Assembly: GCA_030059665.1 (NCBI GenBank)
Contig: JANVYR010000001.1
Location: forward strand, 793,046 to 857,045
DNA length: 64,000 nucleotides
Direction: 5' to 3'
From: Candidatus Calditenuis fumarioli
GTDB lineage: Archaea; Thermoproteota; Nitrososphaeria_A; Caldarchaeales; Calditenuaceae
Shown: positions 43,678-51,215 of the stretch, piece after piece
How positions within the stretch are numbered: position 1 is the first letter of the stretch
Layout of the letters: every line of letters starts with the position of its first letter
Made by a program: the position numbers and the translations under genes
The notes under the pieces: model-generated
What the model was told of the DNA's origin: nothing
What the model saw: the letters and a program-made list of their open reading frames with translations, nothing else
Database searches by the model: none

Positions 43678-44793
43678 TCATCCGCGAAACCTGGTGGGGT
43701 CCAGGACCGGGGGTATCAGACCGGCCCTGATGGCGTGGTCCGCGAGCACGATGCCCACCATCGACTCGACCACGGGTACGGCCCTCGGGCCTATGACCGG
43801 GTCGTGCCTGCCGGTGACGACGACCTCCTCCTCTCTCATCGTGGAGAGGTTCAGGGTCCTCTGCGGCTTCGAGATCGATGCGGGAGGCTTGAAGGCCACC
43901 CTCACGAGGATCTCTCGTCCGGTGGAGAGGCCCCCGACGATGCCTCCGGCGTTGTTCGTCCTCGGCAACACCTTTCCGTCGACCAGCGTAAGGGGGTCGT
44001 TGTTCTCGGAGCCCCTGCTGCCCACTGCCCGGAATCCCCTCCCGAACTCCACACCTTTGACCGCGGGGATTGCGAAGAGCGCCCTTGCGATGTCCGCATC
44101 GAGGGAGGAGAAGACGGGTTCGCCGAGGCCTACGGGAACGTTCACCGCGATGCACTCCACCAGGCTCCCTATGCTGTCGCCTGAGGCCCTCACCTGCTTG
44201 ATCAGCTCGACCATGCGGGCCGCGGTCTCCTCATCGGGGCACCTCACCTCGTTCGAGTAGCGCTTCTCCCTGATCTCGTCTACCGTGAGCTCGGGTGCCA
44301 CAACTTCTCCCACCTGCTTCACGTACGCCATCACCTCGATCCCGAGCGTGACCCTGAGGAGCTTCAGCGCAACAGCACCTGCCATCACGAAGCCCGCGGT
44401 TATCCTCCCCGAGAACCTCCCTCCTCCCCGGTAGTCGTTGAAGCCTCCGTACCTCACCCTGGCGAAGTAGTCGGCGTGCCCCGGCCTCGGGACGTTCAGG
44501 AGCCTCTCGTAGCTCCTCGAGTCGACGTCCCTGTTCCAGACGACCATCGCGATCGGAGCTCCTGTCGTGTGTCCCCTGAAGACGCCGCTGAGTATTTCCA
44601 CCCTGTCCTCCTCCCTCCTCGGGGTTGCGATGGCCGACTGGCCGGGCCTCCTCAGGTCGAGGAGCGGTTGGACGTCCTCCTCCGACAGCGGAAGGCCGGC
44701 TGGGCACCCGTCGATGACCACCCCGACGCACCTCCCGTGGCTCTCGCCGAAGCTGACCACCACGAACCGCTCGCCGAGCACGTTACCCGGCAT
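43678..44793 (-). CDS. aroC: Chorismate synthase
   Basis: GESHG, RPGHAD, GGRFSGR.TA, AIPAVKG, NNAGGIVGG, GRHDP; ATG 44793. Confidence 0.97.
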   Translation of the reverse strand: MPGNVLGERFVVVSFGESHGRCVGVVIDGCPAGLPLSEEDVQPLLDLRRPGQSAIATPRREEDRVEILSGVFRGHTTGAPIAMVVWNRDVDSRSYERLLNVPRPGHADYFARVRYGGFNDYRGGGRFSGRITAGFVMAGAVALKLLRVTLGIEVMAYVKQVGEVVAPELTVDEIREKRYSNEVRCPDEETAARMVELIKQVRASGDSIGSLVECIAVNVPVGLGEPVFSSLDADIARALFAIPAVKGVEFGRGFRAVGSRGSENNDPLTLVDGKVLPRTNNAGGIVGGLSTGREILVRVAFKPPASISKPQRTLNLSTMREEEVVVTGRHDPVIGPRAVPVVESMVGIVLADHAIRAGLIPPVLDPTRFRG

Positions 44794-46069
44794 CCCTGAC
44801 CTCCACCTCGCAACCCACCGCCGAGAGGTCCCTGAGGAAGTTCGGGTAGGAGACGTCCACCGACTCGACGCCGAGCGTGGCCACCTTGCCCTGTGAGGCG
44901 AGCGAGAGGAGAGCGAAGGCCATGAAGAGCCTGTGGTCCCCCTCCGGGTCAAGAACGGCCTCCCTCAGCTCTGCACCTCTGACCACCAGACCGTCCCTTT
45001 TCTCCTCGACCGATGCTCCCGCCTTTGAGAGCTCCCTCGCCAGAACCGCGATCCTGTCGGTCTCCTTGTACCTCGCGTGACCGACGCCTGAGACGATCGT
45101 CTCGCCTTCGGCGAAGCACGCCAGCACTGCGACCACCGGAAGGAGGTCCGGAGCGTCCCGGAGGTCGACGTGGACTCCGTGGAGGTCGGACCCGAAGACC
45201 TCGACGTAGTTCTCACCCTCCCTGAACCTCGCTCCCATTTCGCGGAGGACCTCGAGGATCGCGGCGTCGGCCTGAGGCAGCGACCGGTCGAGGTTCCAGA
45301 CCCTGACAGATCCCCCCATGAGCAGCGGCACGGCCATCAGGAACGCGGCCAGCCCGTAGTCGCCCGGCACGGCGAACTCCCTAGCCCTCAGACCTCCGCC
45401 CTCGACGAGGACCCTGCTGCCCTCGAGCGAGACGCGTCCTCCGAAGCGGCGGACCACCTCGCACGTGGCCTCGATGTAGGGCCTCGAGACGACCTCGCCC
45501 GTCAGGCTCACCTCCAGCGCCCCATCGGAGGCGGAGCCAGCCACGATCAGCCCGGAGACGAACTGGCTGCTCACGTCGCCCCTCATCGCGCACTTTCCCC
45601 TCAGGCCCCCTTCGCCCTTCACCACGACCGGAGCGCAGCCGTTGTTCCTCGTTGACCAGGCCTCCACGCCCAACTGCCCGAGCGCCTCGAGGAGCGGCCC
45701 CATCGGCCTCCTCCTCAGGCTACCGTCGCCGGTTAGGACCGTGTAACCGCCCTCGACCAGCGAGGCCACGGCGGTGGCGATCCTGAGCGTGGTCCCCGAG
45801 TTCATCGCGTCGATGACGTCCTCCGGTACCTGAGGCCTCTCCACGCCCTCCACGACCAGCAGTCCCTCCCTCTGGTCAACCTGAGCTCCGAAGGCCCTGA
45901 CCGCGTTGATGGTGGCCACCGTGTCCCTCGAGATCAGGGGAGACCTGACGGTGGAGGTTCCGTCCGAGAGCGAGGCGACGAAGACGGCCCTGTGCGTGTA
46001 GCTCTTCGAGGGCGGTGCCGTCACGTCACCGAATACCTCCTCCCTCTGCCTGACCCTGACCAGCTTCAT
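44783..46069 (-). CDS. aroA: EPSP synthase
   Basis: PPSKSYTHR, NSGTTLR, LRRRPM, SSQFVSG, KETDR, DHRL; ATG 46069 in ATGA overlap with aroE. Confidence 0.96.
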   Translation of the reverse strand: MKLVRVRQREEVFGDVTAPPSKSYTHRAVFVASLSDGTSTVRSPLISRDTVATINAVRAFGAQVDQREGLLVVEGVERPQVPEDVIDAMNSGTTLRIATAVASLVEGGYTVLTGDGSLRRRPMGPLLEALGQLGVEAWSTRNNGCAPVVVKGEGGLRGKCAMRGDVSSQFVSGLIVAGSASDGALEVSLTGEVVSRPYIEATCEVVRRFGGRVSLEGSRVLVEGGGLRAREFAVPGDYGLAAFLMAVPLLMGGSVRVWNLDRSLPQADAAILEVLREMGARFREGENYVEVFGSDLHGVHVDLRDAPDLLPVVAVLACFAEGETIVSGVGHARYKETDRIAVLARELSKAGASVEEKRDGLVVRGAELREAVLDPEGDHRLFMAFALLSLASQGKVATLGVESVDVSYPNFLRDLSAVGCEVEVRDAG

Positions 46070-46908
46070 CCGCCCGACCACCGGACGCATGACCTCGCTA
46101 TATGCTCCATCAGCCGGTGTCCCGGGTCGATCCCTGTCCAGAGCCTGAAGGAGTGGGCCGCCTGCCTCGCCAGCACCTCGATCCCGTCGACGACCTCGCA
46201 TCCCGCCGCCCTCCCCAGCCTCGTCGCCGGCGGCTCGCCGGTCCTCGAGTAGACCAGGTCGACCAGGAAGGCGACCCCCCTGAGGTCCTCGACGTCGAGA
46301 GGGAGGTCCGCGTCGTGCGAGAGGCCCGCGGGTATCGCGTTCACCACCACCTCGGCTCCCCTCACCACGCGTCCCAGCTCCGACAGCGGCGCGAACCTCG
46401 CCGGAACACCGAACCTCTCCCCGCACGTCCTGGACAGCTCGAGGCCCCTCGACTCGGTCCTGTTGACGACCACCACTTCTCGGGCCCCTGTCCTTGCGAG
46501 CGCGTACGCAGCTGCCCTCGCAGCACCGCCAGCACCTATCAGAACGGCCCTCCGGAACCCCACCGCACCCCTCTCCCTCAGCGCCTCCTCTACGGCGACC
46601 CAGTCGGTGTTGTGGCCCTCCCAGCCGTCAGGCGTCCTGACGAGGACGTTGACAGCACCGATCGCCTCGGCGTCCCGCGAGACCCTTACCGAGCACCGGA
46701 AGGCCTCCTCCTTGTGGGGGATCGTCACGTTAAGCCCGAGGAACCCGAGGTCGTGGAGGGACCTGAGGACGCTCCTGACAGCCTCTCGTTCTGAGACGTC
46801 GATGGCCACGTACCTGTGCGGCAGCCCCTTGATCAGACAGGTGACGGAGTGGATGACCGGCGAGAGGGAGTGCGATACGGGATGGCCTATCAGCCCGAGT
46901 AGCGCCAT
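46066..46908 (-). CDS. aroE: Shikimate dehydrogenase
   Basis: HSLSP, NVTIPHK, GAVN, NTD, GAGGAARA, QAA.SF..W; ATG 46908. Confidence 0.95.
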   Translation of the reverse strand: MALLGLIGHPVSHSLSPVIHSVTCLIKGLPHRYVAIDVSEREAVRSVLRSLHDLGFLGLNVTIPHKEEAFRCSVRVSRDAEAIGAVNVLVRTPDGWEGHNTDWVAVEEALRERGAVGFRRAVLIGAGGAARAAAYALARTGAREVVVVNRTESRGLELSRTCGERFGVPARFAPLSELGRVVRGAEVVVNAIPAGLSHDADLPLDVEDLRGVAFLVDLVYSRTGEPPATRLGRAAGCEVVDGIEVLARQAAHSFRLWTGIDPGHRLMEHIARSCVRWSGG

Positions 46909-47609
46909 GCTCCCAACAGCTCCGAGAGCGAGTGGGCGGCCCTCCTCGTCTCCTCGACCGTCATCTGTCCCGGAGCGACCTCCATCCCCTGAAGTGCGGC
47001 GTACGCGAAGGGAGCTCCGAGGACGAGGCTGAGGGGCCTCGTGAAGGCGTACTCCTTCCCGACGGAGAAGGCGATCAGGTTCCCCTTCGACCAAGGGAGG
47101 CTGTGGTACAGCGAGAGCGTGGCGATCGCTCCCACGAGCGACGAGGGCCTGGTGACGACCTTGACCAGGTCGCCGTGCTCCCTCAGGGCATGGGCCAGCT
47201 CCGCGAGCTTCTCCGGGTCGGAGCCGTTGGGGCCGAGGTGCGCAGATGCGATGACCCTTGACCTTCCGAGCTCGGCCACGACCTGCCTGACCTGCTCGTG
47301 TCCGAGAGCGTGGGAGTCCACGTCGATCAGGTCCGATCTGGGACCGACCCTCCTGAGGACGTCAGCGGCCTCTTCCGGTCCCCCCGAGAACCTCCCTCCC
47401 TCCGCGGAGCTCCTGAGGGTTGCGACGGTCTCGATGCCGAGCGACCTCACCTCCCTGAGCGTGACATCGGCCTGATCGAGCCGATCGAGGTAGTCGATCC
47501 TCAGCTCCACCATGTCGGCCCCCTCTTCCTGCGCCCTCCTCGCCAGCTCCACCATCCGGCGGTGGCCCCCGGACGCAATCGAGACGCAGACCCTGTACCT
47601 CAAGCGCAT
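46890..47609 (-). CDS. aroD: Type I 3-dehydroquinate dehydratase
   Basis: DMVELRIDYL, TLRS.AEGG.F, ASAH, VKVV, TRPLS...GAPFAYA..APGQ. Confidence 0.9.
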   Translation of the reverse strand: MRLRYRVCVSIASGGHRRMVELARRAQEEGADMVELRIDYLDRLDQADVTLREVRSLGIETVATLRSSAEGGRFSGGPEEAADVLRRVGPRSDLIDVDSHALGHEQVRQVVAELGRSRVIASAHLGPNGSDPEKLAELAHALREHGDLVKVVTRPSSLVGAIATLSLYHSLPWSKGNLIAFSVGKEYAFTRPLSLVLGAPFAYAALQGMEVAPGQMTVEETRRAAHSLSELLGAWRYSG

Positions 47610-48592
47610 CAGACCTCGTCGATGAACTCCTCGACGGCGATCCCCATGTGCCTCGCGGCTTTCTCGGACACCCTCACCAGGACCTCGTCGCCCTGGGAGA
47701 GGGAGGTGACGTCTAGGACCTCGCCCTTGGGGCTGACCAGCCTGATGGTCTCAGCCTTCTGGAGCGCGACCGACCCGGTGACGCCGTTCACCTCCGCGAT
47801 CACGTTCACCAGCGGCCTCCGCTCGACCTTCACCCTCCCGACCGAGACGATCCTGGTGGAGCCATCGACCGAGACCATCAAAACCCTAGACCCCGACCTG
47901 AGCTCGGAGAGGTAGTAGGTCCTCTCGGAGGGCCCGAGGACGTAGCACTGGACGGATCCCGCGTTCACCCGGAAGGGCCTTGGTGGGGTCATCCGGCTGC
48001 CGATCGACTCGTTGTGGACGAGGAAGAGCATCCTCGCCATGTTCCCCACCAGCATTCCCTCGCCCGGCCTCAGCAGCGAGTTGGTGTCGACGCACGCCCT
48101 CTCGCCGGGACCGAGGCCCACGACGTCCTTTACCCTCGCGGCCCTGAGCTCCAACCTTCTGGGCGTCTCGACGAGCTCCCGGACGTAGTGAAGCTCCGAG
48201 AGGAGGTCCCTGGGGACCACGATCCCGTCAACTCCCCTCTCCAGGACGTGGATTAGGTCCTCGACCTCCTGGACGCTCCTCGCCCTCGCGAAGACCCTGA
48301 CGCCCCTTCCCTGAAGGGCCGCTATCACGTTCTCGAGCGCTATGATCCTCAGCTCCTCCGGCTCCACCAGGACCGCCTCCGTCCCCGGTCCGAGCGACCT
48401 GAGCATCGCCTCCACGTCCTTCTGGTCCCTGATCCTGAAGGTCTGCAATGAGCTGGGATTGTAGACGCGGATGCCGGCGTTCGCCGGTCCAACGTCGCCC
48501 AGCACCGCGTCGGCCCCGGCCTCGACGGCCCTCCTCAGGTCCTCCTCGCCGCCGACCTCTGCGATTAACTCCTTCCGCCTACCTCCGGACAT
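47609..48592 (-). CDS. 3-dehydroquinate synthase II (oxidative deaminating; archaeal aroB')
   Basis: IIALEN, LERGVDG, G.GERACVDT, RPFRVNAG, YLSELRSG, GRVKVERRPL, LQKAET. Confidence 0.93.
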   Translation of the reverse strand: MSGGRRKELIAEVGGEEDLRRAVEAGADAVLGDVGPANAGIRVYNPSSLQTFRIRDQKDVEAMLRSLGPGTEAVLVEPEELRIIALENVIAALQGRGVRVFARARSVQEVEDLIHVLERGVDGIVVPRDLLSELHYVRELVETPRRLELRAARVKDVVGLGPGERACVDTNSLLRPGEGMLVGNMARMLFLVHNESIGSRMTPPRPFRVNAGSVQCYVLGPSERTYYLSELRSGSRVLMVSVDGSTRIVSVGRVKVERRPLVNVIAEVNGVTGSVALQKAETIRLVSPKGEVLDVTSLSQGDEVLVRVSEKAARHMGIAVEEFIDEV

Positions 48593-49364
48593 GGATCAGG
48601 GCCTCCTCCGGCCTCTTCCCCTCGAGGACGATCGCCCGGATCGCCCTGACTATCCCTCTCGGGTTCTCGTGCATGAAGACGTTCCTCCCTATCGTCACGC
48701 CCATGGCACCAGCCCTTACCGCACCCCACACCATCTCGAGGACGTCCTCGTCGCGGTCGGACTTGGGGCCTCCTGCCATCACCACCGGCGCGGGGCAGGT
48801 CTCGACCACCTCCCTGAACGTCTCGGGTGATCCGGTGTAGGGGACCTTGACGACGTCGGCCCCGAGCTCGGCACCGACCCTCGCGACGTGGGCTATCACC
48901 TTCGGGTCGTTCGGGTCCTTCACGTTCTCCCCCCTCGGGTACATCATGGCTATCAGCGGCACCCCGTACTCGTCGCACTCGTCTGCAACCATCCCCAGCT
49001 TCCTGAGCATGTGGGGCTCCGCTTTGCTGCCGATGTTGATGTGGACCGATACCGCATCTGCTCCCATCCTGAGCGCGTTCAGCACAGTCCCGTCCCTAAC
49101 CTTCCAGTTCGGATCGGGACCGAGCGAGGTGCTGGCTGAGAGGTGTAGGATGAAGCCGACCCTCGGAGGTCTCGGCATGTGCTTCAGTATCCCCTTGTTC
49201 GTCAGGACAGCGGTCGCTCCTCCCTCCTCCACCAGCTCTATCGTCCTGTAGATCCTGTCGAGCCCCTTCATCACGCCCGAGGAGACGGCGTGGTCCATCG
49301 GGATGCAGACCATCCTACCGTCCTGAGTTATCCGGGAAAGCCTCACCTGCTTGCCCCAGACCAT
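48579..49364 (-). CDS. 2-amino-3,7-dideoxy-D-threo-hept-6-ulosonate synthase (class I aldolase; archaeal aroA')
   Basis: PMDHAVSSG, HLSAST, MMYPRG, AELGADVVK, AGGPK; cotranscribed with DHQS II. Confidence 0.9.
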   Translation of the reverse strand: MVWGKQVRLSRITQDGRMVCIPMDHAVSSGVMKGLDRIYRTIELVEEGGATAVLTNKGILKHMPRPPRVGFILHLSASTSLGPDPNWKVRDGTVLNALRMGADAVSVHINIGSKAEPHMLRKLGMVADECDEYGVPLIAMMYPRGENVKDPNDPKVIAHVARVGAELGADVVKVPYTGSPETFREVVETCPAPVVMAGGPKSDRDEDVLEMVWGAVRAGAMGVTIGRNVFMHENPRGIVRAIRAIVLEGKRPEEALIHVRR

Positions 49365-50420
49365 CTATCCCAACCTCCCGGTCGCCTTGAGGAGCTCGGC
49401 CGTCAGGATCGCTATCCCCGCTGCCCCCCTCACTAGGTTGTTCGTCAGGCTCACGAACTTCACGGTCCGCTCCGACGAGCCCTTCCTGAGCCTGCCCACG
49501 TGGACTACCATCCCGGACCTGTCGTTCGATCCCGCGTCCAGCCTCGGCTGCGGCCTGTCCTCCTCACGCCTCAGCTCGATGGGCCTCGGTGGCGCCGTGG
49601 GAAGCTCCAGCTGCTGCGGCAGCCCCCTGAAGTCCTCGAGAGCCTCCGCCACCTCCTCGAGCTTCGCCTCCCGGGATAGCGTCACCGTCAGGGCCGCCAG
49701 GTGCCCCACCAGAGTGGGCACCCTCGTGCAGGTGGCGTCGATCGGGACCTCAGCCGGCCTGAAACCTCCGTCCTCGAAGGACCCGAGTATCTTCCTCGGC
49801 TCGAGCTCCACCTTCTCCTCCTCCCCCGGGATGTAGGGGATGACGTTCCCGAGGATCGCCATCGAAGGGACGCCGTTGTAGCCAGCGCCCGAGACGGCCT
49901 GCATCGTGACCACGTTGACGTGCCTCAGCCCGAACTCGTCGAGGAGCGGCTTCAGGGGCATGACGAAGGCCGTCGTGGTGCAGTTCGGGGTCGTCACGAT
50001 GAACCCGTCCCACTTCCTCCGCCTCCTCTGTACCTCTATCGCGTCGAGATGCTCCGGGTTGATCTCGGGAACGATCAGCGGCACGTCCTCGTGGTACCTG
50101 TTCGCCGAGGCGTCGGAGACAACCGGGAACCCGGCCTCCGCGAATTTGTGCTCCAGCTCCCGGGCCGCCTTGGTGGGGAGGCAGCTGAAGACCAGGTCGG
50201 CGTCGACCTTCGCAGGGTCCGAGGGAAGGACCTCCAGGTCCCAGTACTTCCTAGGCACGTCGCCCTTCCCCGCATAGGCCTCGACCAGCTTCTTCCCGAC
50301 GGTCGTGTTCCCCGTGACCGCGCTCACCTCGAACCACGGGTGGTCCGCGAGCATCTGCAGGTAGATCTGCCCGACCATTCCTGTGGCTCCCAGAACGCAC
50401 ACCCTCAACTTCCTTCCCAT
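49365..50420 (-). CDS. asd: Aspartate-semialdehyde dehydrogenase
   Basis: LGATGMVG, PEINP, NCTT, TMQAVSGAG, CTRVP..GH, NLVRGAAG; ATG 50420 with GGAGGTG SD. Confidence 0.96.
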   Translation of the reverse strand: MGRKLRVCVLGATGMVGQIYLQMLADHPWFEVSAVTGNTTVGKKLVEAYAGKGDVPRKYWDLEVLPSDPAKVDADLVFSCLPTKAARELEHKFAEAGFPVVSDASANRYHEDVPLIVPEINPEHLDAIEVQRRRRKWDGFIVTTPNCTTTAFVMPLKPLLDEFGLRHVNVVTMQAVSGAGYNGVPSMAILGNVIPYIPGEEEKVELEPRKILGSFEDGGFRPAEVPIDATCTRVPTLVGHLAALTVTLSREAKLEEVAEALEDFRGLPQQLELPTAPPRPIELRREEDRPQPRLDAGSNDRSGMVVHVGRLRKGSSERTVKFVSLTNNLVRGAAGIAILTAELLKATGRLG

Positions 50421-50426
50421 ACGAGA

Positions 50427-50564
50427 CACCTCCACAAACGAAGCCTGAGCGGAGGGGGCAAGGATGGAGGGAATTCCATTATCCCTCCCAGAAATAGAAG
50501 TAGGTATAGGCCGTGAAGGCGAACCCGAGCAGGTTAACACGGCCCATACCTACCCCCTCCGCTC
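50427..50564 (-). promoter_or_regulatory. Putative attenuator-like 5' leader of the asd-aro operon with alternative helices
   Basis: GAGCGGAGGGGGUA (50564-50551) pairs with UGCCCCCUCCGCUC (50460-50447); GGAGGGA (50488-50482) pairs with UCCCUCC (50472-50466); CCUCCGC or CCUCCAU can pair with the asd SD GUGGAGG. Confidence 0.65.
50479..50547 (-). CDS. Putative aromatic-rich leader peptide MGRVNLLGFAFTAYTYFYFWEG
   Basis: Manual translation; ATG preceded by GGAGG; 4 Phe, 3 Tyr and 1 Trp within codons 9-20; ends 58 nt before the asd ATG. Confidence 0.75.
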   Translation of the reverse strand: MGRVNLLGFAFTAYTYFYFWEG

Positions 50565-50584
50565 GCACCTCGCGGCAAACCCCA

Positions 50585-50593
50585 TAATATAAA
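50585..50593 (-). promoter_or_regulatory. TATA box for the leader-asd-aro transcript
   Basis: TTTATATTA on the minus strand; predicts a transcription start near 50564. Confidence 0.6.
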
Positions 50594-50637
50594 CGTTCGA
50601 AGCAAGGGTTCGGAGAGCAGAGCGACGCGTCGAGCGA

Positions 50638-51174
50638 TCACGAGATCCGGCCGCCATCGCCCTGCGCCAGCTTCATGCGCCTCTCCAGGACCTTCCTCCT
50701 GGGAGCGTGGTCCCTCTTCCAGACCATTACCGTCCTCCTGAACTCGACGACCGGCACGTTGTCCTGGTTGTATCCGACGGTCCTGACCTTGACGATCCCC
50801 ATTCCGGGCCTTGATCGGGACTCGCGCTTCTCGAGGACCTCGCTCTGGGCGTACAGCGTGTCGCCGGCGTAGACGGGGTGGAGGAACCTCACCTCCTCGA
50901 ACCCCAGGTTGATGGCGTTCTGGCTCACGTCCATCACGCTCAGCCCCAGCACAACGGCCAGCGTAAGGGCACTGTTGACCAGCGGTCTGCCCCACTCAGT
51001 CTCTGCGCAGTAATCGGCGTTGACGTGGATCTCGTTCGGGTTCATCGTGAGCAGCGTGAACCAGACATTGTCTGCCTCGGTCACCGTCCTCCCGTAGGGA
51101 TGAACGTAGACGTCTCCCAGCTCGAAGTCCTCGAAGTACCTGCCCTCCCAGCCCCTGAAGACCCTCCCCTTCAC
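50638..51174 (-). CDS. MaoC family dehydratase (hotdog fold)
   Basis: GRYFEDF, RTVTEADN..F..LT.N.N.IH, VYAGDTLYA.SEV. Confidence 0.9.
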   Translation of the reverse strand: MKGRVFRGWEGRYFEDFELGDVYVHPYGRTVTEADNVWFTLLTMNPNEIHVNADYCAETEWGRPLVNSALTLAVVLGLSVMDVSQNAINLGFEEVRFLHPVYAGDTLYAQSEVLEKRESRSRPGMGIVKVRTVGYNQDNVPVVEFRRTVMVWKRDHAPRRKVLERRMKLAQGDGGRIS

Positions 51175-51215
51175 GTCGCTCGTTCTGGAAGGAGGGCTAC
51201 AAATCCTCTACGAGG

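Follow-up and report, generated by a model that had tools for sequence, protein, structure and literature searches.

Leader-peptide attenuation is a textbook bacterial mechanism. The pheL-pheA, trpL-trpE and thrL leaders of Escherichia coli are leader-peptide transcription attenuators, and several amino acids are sensed by thrL and ilvL. In the ermC and cat systems, a ribosome stalled in the 5' leader open reading frame (ORF) remodels the nearby helices, and the ermC mRNA can also be shielded from 5'-to-3' decay. The control of amino acid pathways in Archaea is generally ascribed to transcription factors, TrpY being an example, and transcription and translation are coupled in Archaea. To our knowledge, hairpin-dependent intrinsic terminators are not used by the archaeal RNA polymerase, and a working archaeal leader would therefore have to rely on another output. 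No description of archaeal leader-peptide attenuation was found in a search of the full-text literature, which yielded bacterial parallels only.

In Corynebacterium glutamicum, the aroF (DAHP synthase) operon is headed by the AroR leader (Phe-Tyr-Phe) (Neshat et al., 2014, as summarized in PMC11802643). According to that summary, ribosome stalling on the Phe/Tyr codons raises the expression of the operon, and the regulation is reported to act on transcription (PMC11802643). In mycobacteria, a leaderless short ORF encoding a polycysteine peptide (Ms5788A) is a translational attenuator: the downstream Shine-Dalgarno (SD) sequence is sequestered and is freed by stalling (bioRxiv 10.1101/834739).

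In the window, which is the whole 64,000-nucleotide stretch of Calditenuis DNA that was analyzed, a leader element heads a seven-gene aromatic operon beginning with asd. A preliminary description had reported a TATA box, a leader SD and a 22-codon ORF with 8 aromatic residues, located 58 nt ahead of asd-aroA'-aroB'-aroD-aroE-aroA-aroC. All these features were found on the minus strand where it had placed them, and both the gap and the order of the genes were borne out by the sequence and the Pfam assignments:
50593-50585, minus strand: TATA box TTTATATTA, identified in the sequence
about 50564-50562, minus strand: predicted transcription start, 21-23 nt 3' of the TATA box
50560-50556, minus strand: leader SD GGAGG, 8 nt 5' of the leader ATG
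50547-50479, minus strand: leader ORF of 22 codons plus TAA, encoding MGRVNLLGFAFTAYTYFYFWEG, with the ATG starting at 50547 and the TAA at 50481-50479
50508-50488, minus strand: aromatic core, codons 14-20, Tyr-Thr-Tyr-Phe-Tyr-Phe-Trp
50433-50418, minus strand: asd ribosome-binding site (RBS), composed of the SD GGAGGUG (50433-50427) and the ATG (50420-50418)
43678-50420, minus strand: operon asd-aroA'-aroB'-aroD-aroE-aroA-aroC (Pfam)

The aroA' and aroB' genes encode a DeoC-family ADH synthase and a DHQ synthase II, respectively, and the gene upstream of the leader, which ends at 50638, encodes a MaoC hydratase (Pfam). The shikimate kinase gene is absent from the seven-gene operon (43678-50420). 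The 3' end of the 16S rRNA, GGAUCACCUCC, is complementary to the strong asd SD GGAGGUG. Three hot-spring metatranscriptomes and one sediment run yielded a total of 8 reads, none of which fell on the leader, and these are too few to be informative.

A TATA-like box was recognized by eye in all four genera of the Calditenuaceae, referred to here as g1 (Calditenuis), g2, g3 and g4; it lies 21-25 nt 5' of the first base of the leader fold described below or, in g3, of an ATG at which the leader ORF would start. In four g3 sequences (L015-L017 and L022; L016:1307-1360), a perfect inverted repeat, GCGGGC-N10-GCCCGC, is present between the TATA box and this ATG, and the same repeat occurs with one or two mismatches in L019, L020 and L021. 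It could be an operator for a transcription factor acting at the leader promoter.

The choice of codons in the leader departs from that of the genes which it precedes. In six of the operon genes, TAC outnumbers TAT 26:1 (TAT is used in 1 of 27 cases) and the ratio in favor of TTC is 34:1. In the leader core (50494-50508), TAT encodes Tyr14 and Tyr18, the latter unpaired in the predicted fold, i.e., two of the three Tyr codons. Rare Tyr codons would therefore be placed at what is presumed to be the sensing site.

The 167-nt leader was predicted to fold at -80 kcal/mol, as compared with -60 +/- 4 kcal/mol for dinucleotide shuffles (z = -5; none of the 200 shuffles was as good), and the closed fold still reaches -32 kcal/mol at 75 C. 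The core of the leader is a 118-nt three-way junction consisting of the helices P1, P2 and P3 (MFE structure), the parts of which are as follows:
50564-50552, minus strand: P1 5' arm GAGCGGAGGGGGU, which holds the leader SD GGAGG and starts at the predicted +1
50551-50538, minus strand: P2 5' arm, which holds the leader start codon ATG (50547-50545)
50515-50502, minus strand: P2 3' arm CACGGCCUAUACCU, comprising the end of Phe11, Thr12, Ala13, Tyr14, Thr15 and the first base of Tyr16
50501-50489, minus strand: J2/3, a 13-nt single strand of Tyr/Phe codons
50488-50466, minus strand: P3 hairpin GGAGGGA/UCCCUCC, whose loop begins with the stop codon TAA
50459-50447, minus strand: P1 3' arm GCCCCCUCCGCUC, which holds CCUCC, a mimic of the 3' end of the 16S rRNA

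Two of these helices had been proposed previously. The pairing between the arm carrying the SD and the distal CCUCC strand proved to be real, although P1 amounts to 13 bp and not to the 14 nt claimed, and in it the leader SD is paired with the CCUCC-rich strand. The pairing of GGAGGGA with UCCCUCC just past the stop was likewise recovered in the fold, with its arms at 50488-50482 and 50472-50466. The third helix, P2, did not figure in the preliminary description: it is composed of 14 bp and is stacked directly on P1, the two together making up a 27-bp helix, and in it the leader start AUG is paired with the UAU of Tyr14.

A cmscan search of the region 49800-51200 against Rfam (E <= 10) yielded chance hits only, all below 19 bits, and no match to the leader region. 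The known leader families (Phe_leader, Trp_leader, Thr_leader, etc.), riboswitches and the T-box were rejected as candidates, given the lack of any covariance-model match. T-box-like tRNA binding was also rejected, since neither a conserved UGGN nor the specifier geometry was found.

With the covariance model R1, a single copy of the element was identified in each of 18 out of 19 Calditenuaceae genomes, which represent four genera, and this copy invariably stands right before asd. The sole genome of the family lacking it is 73% complete and carries no asd orthologue. The preliminary description had suggested looking for the ORF and the helices in related genomes: they are present throughout the family to this extent, but none were detected with the same model in the 57 genomes of three sister families belonging to the same order. 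When the comparison was anchored on asd, a short aromatic ORF was found just upstream in all 18 asd-bearing genomes of the family, and among the 160 asd loci scanned in bacteria and other archaea, aromatic-rich ORFs were limited to members of the family and a few AT-rich chance frames. A scan of metagenomes added five further loci only, which are nearly identical to those of the family. No second copy of the element was found in the Calditenuis genome; an origin as a repeat or a mobile element was rejected, the element being present there in a single copy.

The asd and aroA' genes are adjacent in all the Calditenuaceae loci and in nearly all the sister-family loci tested. In the sister-family loci L027-L030, L032 and L033, where this adjacency is also kept, the stop codon of the preceding gene overlaps the asd start region (GGAGGTGGAATTGAATG). 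Since asd directly follows another gene in these cases, the operon starts further upstream, without this leader. In the Calditenuis genome, no leader ORFs were found before trpE, pheA and tyrA, which indicates that this genome does not contain a system of such sensors. Upstream of trpE (G000 C1:474250-474800), a TATA-like box and an oppositely oriented tRNA gene are present, with no leader ORF carrying Trp codons. A genome-wide scan for mini-ORFs with amino acid runs was swamped by spurious frames in this 62% GC genome.

In the alignment of the 18 sequences (A4), P1 and P2 are both 88% paired and include 4 and 7 doubly changed pairs, respectively; these covariation statistics are inflated by the relatedness of the sequences and by the fitting of A4 to the model. 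All five measures applied to P1/P2 exceeded those of slid controls, and four of them were reached by 0-3 of 500 shuffles, while the count of further pair types was reached by 257 of 500. P1 and P2 were also recovered independently by RNAalifold. The covariation of helices which the preliminary description had proposed to look for was thus observed for these two within the Calditenuaceae, in related sequences and in an alignment fitted to the model. P3 is poorly aligned in A4. A hairpin at the stop codon is absent in g1b and g2, and single-sequence folds showed that it recurs with an unrelated sequence in g3 (GGACC/GGUCC) and, in the g4 sequence L024, as GGAAGAG/UUUCUUCC with one G.U pair and one mismatch; the remaining two g4 sequences adopt other folds.

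In g4 (L023:1439-1500 and L025:2545-2603), the P1 3' arm is immediately followed by another RBS-like sequence, GAGGTG, and then by ATGTCTA, which resembles the g3-type asd start. It opens an ORF of about 15-18 codons, whose end meets the true asd start in an ATGA in L023 and overlaps the asd start by about 14 nt in L025. ATT replaces ATG in L024.

A structure of this kind might in itself be the functional unit, the ORF being incidental or secondary: the three-way-junction RNA might be bound by a regulatory protein or, as riboswitches are, by a small ligand, or might act as a 5'-terminal stabilizer against 5'-to-3' decay at 75-85 C. The fold does combine a very high stability with conservation, and its first base coincides with the predicted +1. 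The leader SD and the start codon are buried in it, which argues against routine translation; the most conserved codons are located in P2 or in the junction, where constraints on the RNA also act, and for any one sequence at about 58% GC, an open frame of 22 codons is not rare.

The pattern of conservation of the frame argues against the RNA alone being involved. The ORFs of the family (18/18 sequences) contain 22-29 codons, 4-8 of which are aromatic, and are located 45-81 nt before asd. The leader frame is open in all 18 sequences, whereas the other two frames, which contain 33 and 23 stops, are open in only 2 and 6 of them. The start codon and the Tyr codon paired with it lie 39, 42 or 51 nt apart, all of these being multiples of 3 (the value of 42 nt is read from the g3 GUA aligned with the start codon, and would be 60 nt if counted from the upstream ATG of g3), which means that the indels in the hypervariable loop of P2 have kept the frame. 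The pair AUG:UAU of g1a and g2 is replaced by GUG:UAC in g1b and g4, a change which is both synonymous and compensatory. In g3, the internal start has been lost (GUA), but this loss is offset by an in-frame ATG at the 5' end, 25 nt 3' of the TATA box, which would be a leaderless start. Initiation signals are therefore present in all the genera: an SD with AUG or GUG in g1, g2 and g4, and a 5'-terminal AUG in g3.

The core T-Y-x-Y-F-[FY] occurs in 17 of the 18 sequences, the exception being the g2 sequence L026, in which CGC stands at the first Tyr codon and only A-Y-F-Y is left. The three junction codons are TAC, TAT, TTC or TTT in every sequence. The approximately 8 substitutions found in the junction are all synonymous or Tyr<->Phe, including a swap in the order of Tyr and Phe in L021; as a yardstick, of the 9 single-base changes open to such a codon, only 2 would leave it aromatic. 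The residues outside the aromatic core are hypervariable across the family, as is the apical loop, a feature typical of leader peptides. The synonymous variation that had been suggested as a check on the short aromatic ORF was therefore observed, in the form of selection at codon level for Tyr/Phe within the Calditenuaceae.

Thr codons are found next to the aromatic core in 17 of the 18 sequences, and T-T-T-Y is found in six of the eight g3 sequences; in L026, they are not directly adjacent to it. In the window, these Thr codons (50503-50514) double as the P2 3' arm, and the conservation of the Thr-Thr-Tyr-Ala codons is explained equally well by the pairing in P2.

As far as can be judged from the sequences, five observations point to the translation of the leader ORF, the aromatic core is shown to be under selection as Tyr/Phe codons, and the ORF, the aromatic core, P1 and P2 are conserved together. 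With no Rfam family to which the junction could be assigned either, we consider it rather unlikely that the RNA fold is the functional unit in its own right. On balance, the element is probably a cis-regulatory leader of the asd-shikimate operon which is specific to the Calditenuaceae and in which the leader peptide senses the supply of Tyr/Phe(/Trp).

The leader peptide might instead be an arrest peptide, stalling the ribosome, as TnaC does, jointly with a metabolite in the exit tunnel, be it a free aromatic amino acid or another compound, in which case it would sense excess and not starvation. The motif G-F-x-T-Y-x-Y-F-Y/F is conserved beyond a one-codon run, and the stop codon is located within a hairpin loop, 19 nt 5' of the CCUCC strand. 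However, the genera differ in the last 2-5 residues and in which stop codon is used; Tyr and Phe are interchangeable and their order can be swapped, unlike what occurs in known arrest peptides; and the rare TAT codons fit tRNA-limited decoding better. An arrest peptide seems to us quite improbable. Slightly less probable still is a small functional peptide, membrane-associated for example, co-expressed with the operon, or a lineage-specific relic without any regulatory role. The peptide encoded in the window does contain a stretch of about 17 hydrophobic/aromatic residues; against these readings, the g3 peptides are insufficiently hydrophobic and start with an Arg/Gly-rich segment dictated by P1, the residues outside the core are hypervariable, and a relic would hardly show such a strict linkage with asd and such a strong conservation of structure over four genera.

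In the case of a leader sensing the aromatic amino acid supply, the preliminary description had suggested that a stalled ribosome switches the sequestration of the asd SD. The effects of ribosome masks with a 28-nt footprint were computed on the 18 sequences using nested thermodynamic folds at 37 and 75 C, and this proposal was not supported: masks placed on the first Tyr codon, the last aromatic codon or the stop codon left the accessibility of the asd SD unchanged in 17 of the 18 sequences. The only one showing a rise under the stall mask was L026 (g2), from 0.25 to 0.41 at 37 C and from 0.52 to 0.64 at 75 C. Wherever the folds were printed, P1 persisted under the stall masks and was at times extended. 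In the closed fold, the unpaired probability of the asd SD at 75 C is 0.36-0.77, the SD being predicted to be about 60% open. When the mask covered the leader RBS or the whole ORF, the accessibility of the asd SD dropped in g1 only (from 0.55-0.66 to 0.19-0.34, the values under these masks spanning 0.11-0.34), because the P1 3' strand is freed by these masks; no such drop occurred in g2, g3 or g4.

Duplex searches showed that the asd RBS can pair with the region of the P2 3' arm, with the P3 3' arm or with the P1 3' arm, all of which are anti-SD-like, but none of these pairings was better than those of shuffled controls. The best duplexes between the ORF and the RBS were mostly located in or near the P2 3' arm, with z-scores of about 0. 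The alternative helix proposed previously, in which C-rich leader strands capture the asd SD, is feasible in this genome inasmuch as CCCUCCA or CCCUCCGC can pair with it over 7 bp at -12 to -13 kcal/mol; these values nevertheless do not surpass those obtained when the C-rich segments themselves are shuffled (z = -1.3 and -1.9). Only weak pairing with the C-rich strands past the stop is available to the asd SD of g3, which is just GGUG. P1, P2 and P3 are nested and mutually compatible, and alternatives were found within single genera only (an extended P1 in g1b and A':asd SD in g1); for the asd RBS, no alternative helix shared by the whole family could be identified. On geometrical grounds, the asd SD might also form a pseudoknot with the P3 3' arm while P1 stays closed.

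The statement that no U-tract terminator follows the leader was confirmed: no run of at least five U residues is present between the leader stop and asd in g1, g2 or g3, and T4-T5 runs occur only in an insert specific to g4. The P2 hairpin with the U-rich aromatic codons was set aside as a candidate terminator, being located inside the ORF and upstream of where stalling could act.

The way in which such a leader would work can be proposed as follows. Since the leader SD (in P1) and the start codon (in P2) are locked once the RNA has folded, a ribosome could enter essentially only during transcription, as a single pioneer; the closed fold hides the leader RBS, and the translation of the leader on mature mRNA is therefore doubtful. 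The translating ribosome would report the supply of charged tRNA-Tyr and tRNA-Phe, and that of tRNA-Trp where a Trp codon is present, by slowing down or stalling on codons 14-20. Ribosome dwell on the Tyr/Phe codons is likely to be the sensing step. The flanking Thr codons might possibly be sensed as well; because asd also supplies Thr/Met synthesis, multivalent sensing of Thr and aromatic amino acids is conceivable. A ribosome held on the aromatic codons would keep P2 and P3 open, whereas run-through would allow the junction to close. The control would be exerted after the initiation of transcription, without any terminator: the SD-like strands (the P1 5' arm, the P2 5' arm and the asd SD) would compete for the anti-SD-like ones (the P1, P3 and P2 3' arms), and this competition would set the initiation of asd translation, the lifetime of the mRNA, or both. 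An output through SD/anti-SD strand competition is our preferred guess, made with low confidence. The complete scheme, in which the Calditenuaceae leader is a terminator-free archaeal attenuator mediated by ribosomes, with the dwell of the pioneer ribosome on rare Tyr/Phe(/Trp) codons directing the re-pairing of the strands, is put forward tentatively and is the less probable part of our proposal.

By analogy, the element looks like the bacterial ribosome-based amino acid sensors. As in the bacterial attenuators, an ORF containing codons for the end products stands right before a biosynthetic operon; unlike in those attenuators, no terminator hairpin followed by a U-tract accompanies it here. 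The features shared with the E. coli attenuators are the ORF rich in cognate codons, the regulatory codons placed in a helix arm and the stop codon near a second hairpin; the Calditenuaceae leader differs from them in that it has no 3:4 U-tract terminator and no demonstrable 1:2/2:3/3:4 exclusivity. As in the translational attenuators, the operon transcript carries at its 5' end an upstream ORF with an initiation signal of its own, but in the nested folds the downstream SD was not found to be sequestered and then freed by a stall. In ermC and cat, the signal consists of an antibiotic and the nascent peptide and not of tRNA charging, and the downstream SD is inside a hairpin. With Ms5788A, the g3 leaders share a leaderless short ORF as the first cistron, and neither system has a terminator; the regulation of Ms5788A is translational, via the RNA structure around the downstream SD, whereas the asd SD is predicted to be about 60% open in the closed fold and insensitive to the stall mask in all the sequences apart from L026. 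As far as the summary of aroR in PMC11802643 goes, the likeness lies in a mixed Phe/Tyr short ORF placed before the common aromatic pathway and not before the branch leading to one end product; the Calditenuaceae element differs from it in being archaeal, in having no terminator, in including a three-way junction which hides the RBS of the leader itself, and in heading an asd/ADH-synthase (DKFP-type) pathway.

We regard the Calditenuaceae leader as a probable archaeal variant of leader-peptide control. With its 118 nt and three helices, the conserved element is a compact test case giving clear predictions for mutagenesis, and a member of the genus Calditenuis is now in stable laboratory culture (PMC12979851). 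In these archaea, the element shows how the asd/ADH-synthase route to the aromatic amino acids may be matched to demand.
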